64,000 nucleotides of DNA, taken from positions 1-64,000 of the forward strand of contig CAVPLU010000013.1 in assembly GCA_963706285.1 (NCBI GenBank), written 5' to 3'. Under the pieces are notes generated by a model. It ran no database searches. It was given only the letters and a program-made list of their open reading frames with translations, and was not told where the DNA came from. Positions 51,990 to 54,894 of the stretch are shown here, piece after piece. The position numbers and the translations under genes were made by a program. Source of the DNA: Candidatus Bathyarchaeota archaeon. Lineage in GTDB: Archaea > Thermoproteota > Bathyarchaeia > 40CM-2-53-6. Numbering within the stretch: the first letter of the stretch is position 1; each line of letters begins with the position of its first letter.

Positions 51990-52547
51990 TCAATGAGAGC
52001 AATGGCTGTATCTGTCTATGATGAATCTCACTATCTGCTCCGCCGACTGGTTGGGTCTGAGCTTTGACGTGTTCACTTCAAGTTCTGGATGGAGGGGGGC
52101 TTCATATGGAACTCCAATTCCTGGAACGGTTTTGCTGGCGCCCGTTCTTGCCTTGTCATAGATCCGCGATGGTGCCCCGAAGCTTCTTTTCCGTCTTCTT
52201 TCTCGTTCCATGCAGACTTCAAGCGGACACTTGATGTAGACTTCGCCAAAACGCGGGATGCTCCGCCTTGCCGCGGTACGATACATTCGTCTATTGGCAG
52301 TGGCATCGATGATGACGTTAGTTCCATTCTGGGTGAGCATTTTGGCAACGAGTACCAGCGCTCCATAGACGATTCGCCTTTCCTCCTCAGTGTACTCTGG
52401 TTTGGGTGTGAGTGACTCTCTCACCATTTCAACTGAGAGCACCTGAGCCTGAACGCGTCGAGCAAGGAGCTTTCTCGCAACGAGGCGAGCGAGCGTGGAC
52501 TTGCCGCTTCCAGGCATTCCAGTAAGCCAGATTGCCCATCCTCTCAT
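51990..52547 (-). CDS. adenylyl-sulfate kinase-like P-loop kinase
   Basis: IWLTGMPGSGKST, EVYIKCPLEVC, PYEAP. Confidence 0.8.
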   Translation of the reverse strand: MRGWAIWLTGMPGSGKSTLARLVARKLLARRVQAQVLSVEMVRESLTPKPEYTEEERRIVYGALVLVAKMLTQNGTNVIIDATANRRMYRTAARRSIPRFGEVYIKCPLEVCMERERRRKRSFGAPSRIYDKARTGASKTVPGIGVPYEAPLHPELEVNTSKLRPNQSAEQIVRFIIDRYSHCSH

Positions 52548-52611
52548 TGTGAAACCTTCGTTGGAACTCGCGAACTCCGTTGTGAGATCTTTTCGAGTTC
52601 GGATTCGAGCT

Positions 52612-52627
52612 GGAAAAGTATAAAAGG
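52612..52627 (+). promoter_or_regulatory. BRE/TATA promoter of the EF-2 gene (SD-like AGGAG at 52666-52670)
   Basis: GGAAAAG-TATAAAAG about 50 nt upstream of the ATG at 52677. Confidence 0.6.
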
Positions 52628-52676
52628 CATCTGAAGGTTGTGCAGCCCACTTTCAAAGTGAAGATAGGAGATTGAG

Positions 52677-54894
52677 ATGCCCCGTTACAAGACAACAACA
52701 GAGATCATGAAGATCATCGAGAACAAGGACCAAATCCGAAAGGCGTAGGCTAAGGCCTCGCCCGGAATATATCGGAATCATAGCACACGTCGATCACGGC
52801 AAAACCACAATGAGCGACTCGCTCCTAGCGGCCGCTGGTCTCTTGTCCCCCAACGTTGCCGGGACAGCACTAGCACTAGACTACATGGAGGAAGAGCAGA
52901 AACGCCAAATGACGATAAAAGCAGCCAACGTGAGCCTGCTACACGAGCGCGAGGGAACCTCCTACGTCGTTAACCTCATCGATACACCGGGGCACGTGGA
53001 TTTCTCAGGCAGAGTAACCCGCTCGATTCGTGCTATTGATGGCGCCGTTGTTGTGGTGGACTCGGTTGAAGAGATTATGGTCCAGACCGAGACGGTTACC
53101 AGGCAAGCACTTGAGGACAGAGTCCGGCCAGTTCTCTACATAAACAAGATCGATCGACTGATCAAGGAACTTCGACTTTCTCCCGAGCAGATCCAGGAAA
53201 GAATCACGCGCATAATTGGTGAGTTCAATCGACTTGTGATCCTTTACGCCGAGCCCGAGTACCGTGAGAAGTGGGCCGTGAGCTTCGCGGGTAACACCGT
53301 CGCCATGGGGTCCGCGAAGGACAGATGGGGATTCAACGCAGAAGTCGCGAAGAACAAGGGCATCAAGTTCTCAGATGTCGTAGACGCCTACTTGAACGAC
53401 AAAGTCGACCAGTTACGCGAACGAGCGCCACTACATGAAGCCATATTGAACATGGCAGTTGAGGCGATGCCTCCCCCACATGTGGCACAGAAGTACCGGA
53501 TCCCGAAGATCTGGAAAGGCGATCTGGATAGCGAGATCGGCAAGGCAATGATGAACTGCGATGACAGCGGCCCTGCAGTCCTGGCGGTTGTGAATATTGT
53601 AGTTGATCCGCAAGCTGGGGTCGTCGCAGTAGGGCGTCTCTTTTCAGGCACGCTCAAAGAGGGAACCCCAATTCACCTCGTTGGTGCGCGACTGGACCAG
53701 AGAATTCAACAAGTCTGCATATTCATGGGGCCATACAGAGAGATTGTTGGCACGATCACCGCGGGCAACATACCCGCTCTTCTTGGACTTGACGCCGCTA
53801 GGGCAGGAGAGACGCTCTCGCAGCAAAAGGACATTATACCTTTCGAGGCGGTCAAGTATGTCACCGAACCAGTTGTAACAATGGCTGTCGAACCAAAGTA
53901 CAGTCGAGACCTACCACGATTGATCGAGACATTAAGAAGACTGACGATCGAAGATCCTAACCTTGTCACCAAGATCAATGAGGAGACGGGCGAGTATCTA
54001 ATATCCGGTATGGGCACGCTACACTTGGAGATCGCAAATACGCTGATAACGAAGACGGGACTCGAGATTGTCACGTCTAATCCGATTGTGATCTACCGAG
54101 AGACCGTGCGCAGCTCAGCGGGACCACTCGAGGGCAAGTCACCAAATAGGCACAACAAGATCCAGATCCAAGTTGAACCCCTTGGTGAAGAAATAATCGA
54201 CATGATCAAGAAAGGCGATATCAGCGAATACATGGACAAACACGCCTTGGCAAAGGTGCTTAGGGACAAGGGATGGCCGCCGGATGAGGCACGCGGCGTA
54301 TGGGACGTCGAAGCGTCAGGAAACATGCTCATTGAAGTCACAAAGGGAGCGCAATATCTGCAAGAGATCAAGGACCATATCCTCCATGGCTACCGTCAAG
54401 CCCTCAGAGAGGGGCCCCTCGCGTACGAGAACATACGAGGTATCAAGGTCAAGGTAACTGATATCTCAGTACACGAAGACCCAGTCCACCGTGGACCAGC
54501 GCAGATCATGCCGATGACCCAGAGATCCATCTTCGCATGTTTCATGTCAGCAAACCCAACGCTCCTCGAACCTGTCCAGAAGATCACTGTGAAGGCACCG
54601 CCGGATCTACTGGGAGCGATTACGAGCGTCATTTCTCAGAAACGTGGAAAGGTCCTCGCTGTGGATCAGAAGGGTCACCTCGTCTACGTTGTCGGCGAGT
54701 TTCCAACATCGGAGACCTTCGACTTGTCAGAAGTCATGCGTGGCGCGTCAGCCGGCAGAGCTTTTTGGGGTTTGGAGTTCTCTCACTGGGCATCGGTGCC
54801 GGGGTCGCTGATTAACCAAGTGATCGCGGACATCAGAAAGAGGAAAGGTCTGCCCCCTGAACCTCACAAGGCAGCGGACTTTCTGGAAGCCTAA
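52677..54894 (+). CDS. fusA: translation elongation factor 2, two exons join(52677..52740,52769..54894), 729 aa
   Basis: Spliced N-terminus [55 protein letters not shown], diphthamide motif HEDPVHRG. Confidence 0.95.
52741..52768 (+). other. 28-nt bulge-helix-bulge intron in EF-2 mRNA
   Basis: Central helix TCCG/CGGA, bulges AAA and ATA, inner hairpin GGCG(T)AGGC-TAAG-GCCTCGCC; contains an in-frame TAG. Confidence 0.88.

Follow-up and report, generated by a model that had tools for sequence, protein, structure and literature searches.

How a single-copy, essential gene can be expressed when its frame is broken by a short insert with a stop codon is the question raised by the elongation factor 2 (EF-2) locus of Candidatus Bathyarchaeota archaeon (NCBI GenBank assembly GCA_963706285.1). 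The window, by which the whole stretch of 64,000 nucleotides (nt) that was analysed is meant, is C13:1-64000 (contig CAVPLU010000013.1) of a 2.13-Mb genome in 21 contigs, the nearest public relatives of which are metagenome-assembled genomes (MAGs) labelled Candidatus Bathyarchaeia or Bathyarchaeota. A first-pass annotation made from the letters of the window alone had proposed that the 28 nt interrupting EF-2 are a tRNA-type bulge-helix-bulge (BHB) intron in the mRNA. Comparison with related genomes supports this proposal: the insert is very probably a real and conserved intron of this type, cut by the tRNA splicing endonuclease EndA and joined by RtcB, because its structure covaries in 49 relatives, intron-less relatives carry the predicted junction, genes for EndA and RtcB are found in the genome and a second intron of the kind interrupts cbf5.

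The interrupted EF-2 gene

The genome contains one EF-2 gene and no second EF-2 elsewhere, and this single-copy, essential gene is unreadable unless the insert is removed. Translated from the Ile at 52771, the downstream frame matches the archaeal EF-2 (aEF-2) model TIGR00490 with 874.7 bits (curated cut-off 738.45) and covers model positions 22-720 of 720, exactly the first 21 positions being missing. Exon 1 is homologous to the N-terminus of EF-2 in intron-less relatives. Splicing 52740 to 52769 drops 28 nt and yields 21 + 1 + 707 = 729 codons, with the intron splitting the Asn codon in the I-R-N-I-G motif, 11 codons ahead of the P-loop Lys.

Several elements of the first-pass annotation can be checked directly on the sequence (Table 1). 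The ATG at 52677 with an upstream Shine-Dalgarno (SD) and promoter-like element is present (AGGAG; TATA-like TATAAAAG, putative), translation confirms that the EF-2 frame is interrupted by 28 nt with an in-frame TAG, and the codon count agrees with the 729-residue EF-2 predicted after joining. Equally, the open reading frame (ORF) track that starts EF-2 at 52810 does miss the P-loop, as had been noticed: the exon-2 frame is open from 52711 to 54894, contains no ATG, GTG or TTG between 52711 and 52810, and the start codon at 52810 falls 3' of the P-loop AHVDHGKTT.

In the proposed mechanism, exon 1 would pair in the pre-mRNA, through UCCG in its Ile and Arg codons, with CGGA close to the intron's 3' end, each helix strand being followed by a 3-nt bulge and the remaining intron forming a hairpin. 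A two-subunit, crenarchaeal-type EndA would then cut after the second base of each bulge, and RtcB would join 52740 to 52769 to recreate the Asn codon and the 729-codon frame, with the intronic stop at its fixed place ending translation of unspliced transcripts after about 23 residues.

Table 1. Features of the EF-2 locus, positions in the window
Feature	Positions	Strand	Description
TATA-box-like element TATAAAAG	52619-52626	+	about 50 nt 5' of start codon; sequence reading, putative
Shine-Dalgarno-like AGGAG	52666-52670	+	6 nt ahead of ATG; kept in same-genus relatives
EF-2 exon 1	52677-52740	+	ATG at 52677; 21 codons and base 1 of Asn codon
Helix H, 5' strand UCCG	52735-52738	+	Ile and Arg codons of exon 1; 4 base pairs (bp)
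5' bulge AAA	52739-52741	+	unpaired; predicted cut 52740/52741
Intron, 28 nt	52741-52768	+	shifts frame, carries in-frame TAG
Inner hairpin h'	52742-52762	+	8 bp, one bulged U (52746), UAAG loop
In-frame TAG	52746-52748	+	terminates translation of unspliced mRNA after 23 residues
Helix H, 3' strand CGGA	52763-52766	+	within intron
3' bulge AUA	52767-52769	+	unpaired; predicted cut 52768/52769
EF-2 exon 2	52769-54894	+	bases 2-3 of Asn codon through stop codon

Conservation and covariation of the insert

Single-sequence folding of the 51 nt from 52728 to 52778 reproduced the structure described in the first-pass annotation, a UCCG/CGGA helix with AAA and AUA bulges and an 8-bp hairpin with a UAAG loop. 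Evidence for its conservation comes from the alignment of related fusA genes for presence, absence and covariation of the insert. EF-2 loci were compared from 40 relatives of the same order and from 80 public contigs, two sets that share some genomes; a readable P-loop was present in 25 of 30 loci in the first set and 74 of 80 in the second. Among these 99 loci, 63 carry an insert at the standard position, two carry it shifted by one base (L084, L089) and 34 have none. The standard inserts represent 49 distinct sequences of 25-44 nt, all at the same site, which were aligned with MAFFT.

Helix H shows a standard pair in every cell of the alignment (49/49), including substitutions from C-G to U-A in three and from U-A to U-G in five sequences. 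The four basal pairs of the hairpin are paired in 93.9% of cells, and at three of them both sides are altered, in 19, 13 and 9 sequences out of 49. The covariation score of 0.248, against a shuffled mean of 0.115, was attained in none of 500 shuffles, and every slid register scores below the proposed pairing. Without a supplied structure, RNAalifold recovers both helices, separated by three unpaired columns; equally, the minimum-energy structure contains helix H in all 49 relatives. The 5' bulge reads AAA in 40, UAA in five and AAU in four sequences, and the 3' bulge is A-N-A in 46 of 49. The arrangement that defines a BHB, two 3-nt bulges on opposite strands with a 4-bp helix between them, is thereby present.

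EF-2 contigs of the Bathyarchaeia type with the intron also occur within MAGs labelled Acidiferrales, Methylomirabilota and Acidoferrum, all bacteria (L039, L041, L049); these are probably mis-binned archaeal contigs.

The predicted splice junction and constraint on the exons

Archaeal EndA cleaves between residues 2 and 3 of the bulge, a rule given in the available portion of PMC2738675 and cited correctly in the first-pass annotation. Cutting the EF-2 transcript in this way would join CGA A to AU AUC and read R-N-I-G, in exact agreement with the junction of intron-less relatives. The second-base cut would give a functional joined product throughout: all 49 sequences, whichever their length class, would regain the reading frame and R-N-(I/M/F)-G, and the 34 intron-less loci, some of them of the same family (L014, L025, L027, L028), carry the predicted junction uninterrupted.

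Exon 1 evolves as coding sequence. Its start codon lies 21 codons 5' of the junction in 44 of the 49 relatives, differences by codon position are dominated by the third (11502 versus 5362 and 4053), and single-base codon differences are synonymous in 6568 and nonsynonymous in 2594 cases. On top of this, the exon bases that form the helix are constrained in intron-bearing genes: the Ile-Arg codons read ATC CGA in 40 of 49, as compared with 16 different codon pairs in 32 distinct intron-less genes. Where an AGG Arg codon is used (L084, L089), the helix reads CAGG/CCUG and both cuts are displaced by 1 nt with the structure kept; UUCG is partnered by CGAA in L070 and L077 and, via a U-G pair, by CGAG in L074. 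In these cases, exon nucleotides co-vary with the intron.

A divergent intron was observed in another family of the class (L162, G082:C39:3250-3470), with a UGCG/CGCG helix and AGA as the 5' bulge; there, the second-base rule would give Asp and not Asn, and a 4-base repeat leaves the borders ambiguous.

A conserved stop codon inside the intron

All 49 inserts carry a stop codon in the frame of exon 1, which is the third codon after the 5' cut in 47 of them. The triplet is TAG in 42, TGA in five and TAA in two sequences; two alignment columns of the stop codon are more than 90% conserved, with adjoining stem positions varying freely. A triplet that varies only among stops suggests selection on termination itself. 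Where the insert has a length that is a multiple of three, readthrough would produce EF-2 with 9-13 additional residues beside the P-loop, and we infer that the stop would serve to prevent aberrant EF-2 from unspliced transcripts.

Distribution and phylogeny

Of 401 sampled genomes of the class, 57 match a strict DNA pattern of the intron-bearing junction, and all 57 belong to the order of the source genome (56/104 plus the source genome itself; other orders 0/296), and the reversed pattern as a control gave no match. A covariance model matched once each in 27 of 151 genomes, including two outside the order, G043 (family f13) and G082 (family f29). The uninterrupted junction pattern was recovered in 70 of 151 genomes, six in genera g2 and g3 of the own family, none of 23 in the other families of the order and 64 elsewhere. 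One of these 64, the apparent uninterrupted junction in G082, was rejected as a chance match on the 3' end of an intron.

A quick, unrooted FastTree phylogeny of 82 distinct EF-2 proteins, from which four short rows and duplicates were excluded, requires at least six changes of intron state. Most intron-bearing genes fall into one clade with intron-less ones nested inside, a pattern that suggests intron losses, with no order of events drawn from a tree of this kind. MAGs labelled Thaumarchaeota or Nitrososphaerota also carry the intron at the same codon, in one instance displaced by one base and with its helix rebuilt on another Arg codon, and three intron-bearing MAGs with these labels are placed elsewhere in the tree.

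In one relative, the EF-2 gene (L165, G019:C20:32560-34620) contains the BHB intron and, 11 codons later, an intein that immediately follows the P-loop Lys, comprises about 600 residues and has Intein_splicing and LAGLIDADG_3 domains. Open EF-2 frames of 1200-1320 residues were seen in L015, L029 and L030, and probably hold the same intein.

Splicing enzymes and tRNA genes

Two paralogs of the EndA family (PF01974) are encoded in the genome (C12:148962-149519 and C6:75176-75697). The C12 protein is closest to the catalytic subunits 2cv8, 3p1z_B, 3ajv_B and 2zyz_B in end-to-end alignment, and its crenarchaeal loop region aligns ungapped, with Lys residues corresponding to K44 and R46 of A. pernix (3p1z_B alignment). 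This loop confers broad specificity on crenarchaeal EndA, including cleavage of bulge-helix-loop substrates (PMC3241643). The C6 protein is divergent and has His where the C12 protein has the Tyr of the catalytic region. Judged by these features, the enzyme is taken to be a two-subunit, crenarchaeal-type EndA of broad specificity. A gene for RtcB is present as well.

The tRNA genes of this genome are nearly all interrupted, because ARAGORN without introns finds three tRNAs in the whole genome and, of 16 matches to the Rfam tRNA model, the 13 full-length ones span 88-129 nt. As these 16 matches are far below a full set, many tRNA genes may be multiply interrupted or split. ARAGORN with introns returned 26 predictions, 25 of them intron-bearing and some implausible (one of 1,366 nt), and was not used as a count.

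A second mRNA intron in cbf5

Outside the window, on the minus strand of the same contig, cbf5 is split by 20 nt between GHGGTL and DPIVTG (C13, ~129535-129554). A second-base cut of its two AGA bulges would fall between letters 1 and 2 of the catalytic Asp codon, which is the site of the crenarchaeal cbf5 intron according to the available text of PMC2738675. The insert occurs at this published site in 30 of 30 loci, from the own genome and 29 relatives of the order (L117, L121-L149), with a length of 19-23 nt in the 16 loci measured by script, and helix and hairpin show compensatory changes across loci. The first-pass annotation had named cbf5 as the well-known archaeal mRNA intron, in agreement with the literature (available parts of PMC2738675 and PMC7714728), and the source genome thus carries one too. 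In PMC2738675, the cbf5 intron is described as known only from Desulfurococcales and Sulfolobales; by sequence and predicted structure, its range extends to Bathyarchaeia.

It had further been suggested that similar introns might be hidden throughout the genome. The cbf5 case bears this out in one instance, and a genome-wide scan proved too unspecific to add more. Structures with a 4-bp helix, 3-nt bulges and a 4-bp hairpin base were collected and passed through an ORF-repair filter, which reduced 50,665 structural candidates to 2,444, 342 and finally 260; a looser scan went from 586,267 candidates through 5,270 and 1,141 to 217. The EF-2 intron was among those that the filters dropped, as the exon-2 frame stays open across it; the set kept by the looser scan lacked cbf5, and frameshift errors of the assembly mimic split genes.

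Points against a BHB intron

Several observations weigh against the interpretation of the EF-2 insert as an EndA-processed intron. The first concerns the motif. The canonical form, hBHBh', requires two or more Watson-Crick pairs in each of the outer helices (PMC7714728, in the part of the text available). The hairpin side h' has them and the exon-side helix h has not: the latter, already called weak in the first-pass annotation, is paired in 56.6% of cells, and its second pair is mismatched in 48 of 49 sequences. The predicted motif is a relaxed BHB, with a strong intron-side and a weak exon-side helix.

Second, single-sequence folding beats shuffles only modestly. The fold energy is modestly unusual over 51 nt (z = -2.58) and gives z = -1.87 over a longer context of 81 nt, in which 52772-76 take the place of 52763-66 as the closing strand of the minimum-energy fold, CGGAAU being present twice. 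The two copies lie 10 nt apart within 52763-52778, one at the 3' end of the intron and one in exon 2 (second CGGA 52773-76), and exon 1 may pair with the latter in a competing structure. That there is more structure than expected by chance rests on the comparison with relatives, not on energy. In this comparison, the sequences are kin, so that counts based on shuffling overstate their independence.

Third, the RNA data contain no spliced product. In a search of sequencing runs, the share of sampled words present in a run did not exceed 0.46 overall or 0.11 among RNA runs. Four metatranscriptome runs (X16, X17, X19, X20), mapped at 85% likeness, yielded only pieces of 33-217 nt from the GTPase motifs of other organisms, and those abutting the 3' end of the intron (52769-52818) run on into dissimilar sequence of the sort usual in bacterial BipA-like GTPases. 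Neither a joint nor a contig spanning 52740/52769 was obtained; transcripts of the source organism are absent from the four runs, which are therefore uninformative. Finally, the RtcB gene (C4:105729-107043, minus strand) is split by a single-base frameshift at PAMAC/AACNFAW, which is read as an assembly error. A further intron as the cause of the RtcB break was ruled out, the break being a single-base frameshift.

Alternative explanations

Translational recoding, in which ribosomes pass the insert by frameshift, stop readthrough or bypass and the hairpin acts as the recoding signal, is an improbable alternative. The stop codon soon after the break, followed by a stable hairpin, would fit such an event, and in this genome a +1 shift between 52711 and 52745 would yield a full-length product. 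The relatives speak against it. One fixed recoding event across homologs fails, as the insert lengths fall into all classes modulo 3 (14, 19 and 16 of the 49 inserts in classes 0, 1 and 2), so that neither frameshift nor readthrough serves all of them, and in six loci the exon-2 frame is closed within the insert (L007, L010, L012, L019, L020, L024). A bypass landing on CGG at 52763-65, the only Arg codon near the 3' end, would come out one base off the EF-2 frame. The 9-15 variable extra residues would be placed beside the P-loop, where intron-less relatives have none, and the 4-bp helix with its two 3-nt bulges in 49 of 49 sequences would be left unexplained.

Just as small is the chance that exon 1 is a separate ORF for a leader peptide, with EF-2 starting at a non-standard codon behind the insert or at the ATG at 52810 and the hairpin having a regulatory role. 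Exon 1 does have a start codon, an SD-like sequence and a stop codon of its own and would encode a peptide of 23 residues. This peptide is, however, homologous to the first 21 residues of intron-less aEF-2 and corresponds to TIGR00490 positions 1-21, precisely the part that exon 2 lacks. A standard start codon is missing between 52711 and 52810, as described above, a start at 52810 loses the P-loop and a second EF-2 that could substitute is not encoded.

That the insert is removed from the RNA by a route not involving EndA and RtcB, for instance by self-splicing or through a different nuclease and ligase, is slightly less plausible still. The weakness of the exon-side helix would speak for it, but geometry and cut sites are those of EndA substrates, Rfam gave no match on 52400-53000 at E values up to 1, and inserts of 25-44 nt fall far below the size of group I or group II ribozymes.

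An artefact of an error-rich long-read assembly or a decaying pseudogene is hardly credible: the assembly does contain single-base frameshifts such as that in RtcB, but the EF-2 insert, as the first-pass annotation had pointed out, is unlike these in being structured and 28 nt long, it recurs at one site in 49 distinct sequences, which stem from a large number of independent assemblies and assemblers (a comparison between assemblies), both flanks are under purifying selection and the gene is the only EF-2.

Implications

Read as a BHB intron, the EF-2 insert would be a second example, this one in a core translation factor, and would show that reliance of protein-coding genes on the tRNA-splicing machinery can reach beyond the hyperthermophilic Crenarchaeota, here to wetland and soil archaea. 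Dozens of natural variants are available from which to learn what a relaxed BHB needs in an mRNA, and the conserved intronic stop is open to direct testing. There is equally a practical side. An ORF finder starting at 52810 yields a 694-residue product without the P-loop, and annotations of such MAGs probably list EF-2, a common marker gene, as truncated or broken.

A wider scheme, tentative and on present evidence rather doubtful, might be envisaged. EF-2 and cbf5 might be two visible cases among a larger number of mRNAs spliced by EndA in Bathyarchaeia and neighbouring Thermoproteota, with an EF-2 intron that is old or re-inserts at the same site. Splicing might then act as a checkpoint, in which full-length EF-2 is made only from transcripts processed by EndA and RtcB, the intronic stop silences unspliced ones and elongation capacity is tied to the maturation of a heavily interrupted tRNA set.

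Comparison with known systems

The bypass of phage T4 gene 60 involves a short coding gap that starts with a stop codon and holds a hairpin, and needs matched in-frame take-off and landing codons. The EF-2 insert resembles it as a short gap with stop codon and hairpin; matching take-off and landing codons are, however, absent at EF-2, and the BHB geometry is absent from T4 gene 60.

In eukaryotes, IRE1-dependent splicing of HAC1 and XBP1 removes a short mRNA intron with an endonuclease and a tRNA ligase, and only the spliced form gives rise to the active protein. EF-2 would share with it the removal of a short intron from an mRNA without a spliceosome. The IRE1 system (splicing named in PMC13149111) differs in its nuclease, its motif and its role as a stress-regulated switch, whereas nothing seen at EF-2 points to regulation.

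Closer are the BHB introns of archaeal pre-tRNAs, with which the EF-2 intron shares two 3-nt bulges 4 bp apart, the predicted cuts and, putatively, processing by EndA and RtcB. Unlike these, it has no tRNA body, its helix is built from codons of the mRNA, and its splicing would alter a reading frame. A BHB intron that is an EndA substrate in an mRNA, as proposed for EF-2, has been described for HVO_1309 of Haloferax volcanii and confirmed there in vitro, but it lies in the 5' untranslated region (UTR) and not in coding sequence, and the host is a euryarchaeon (available part of PMC7714728). The same portion of that source names cbf5 as the only other BHB intron in archaeal mRNA, as of 2020, besides the one in the HVO_1309 5' UTR. 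No report of a BHB intron in EF-2 was found in the full-text literature, subscription journals and supplements lying outside the search, and the EF-2 intron would be only the second such intron known inside archaeal protein-coding sequence.

The nearest counterpart is the cbf5 intron of the Crenarchaeota (Desulfurococcales, Sulfolobales), as far as it is characterised in the available portion of PMC2738675. Like the EF-2 intron, it is a short BHB intron in coding sequence with an often unconventional or relaxed motif, so that the relaxed motif of EF-2 has frequent parallels there; it is cut between bulge residues 2 and 3, which is attributed to a hetero-oligomeric EndA; and it splits a codon in the catalytic region, with a length that varies by species and is in some a multiple of three. 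The EF-2 intron differs in its host gene, aEF-2, in its lineage, Bathyarchaeia and a few MAGs labelled Nitrososphaeria, and in its position at codon 22, near the start codon. Equally, its in-frame stop at a fixed codon in nearly all relatives has no counterpart in that portion of the cbf5 description. It is an intron additional to that of cbf5, as one genome has both.

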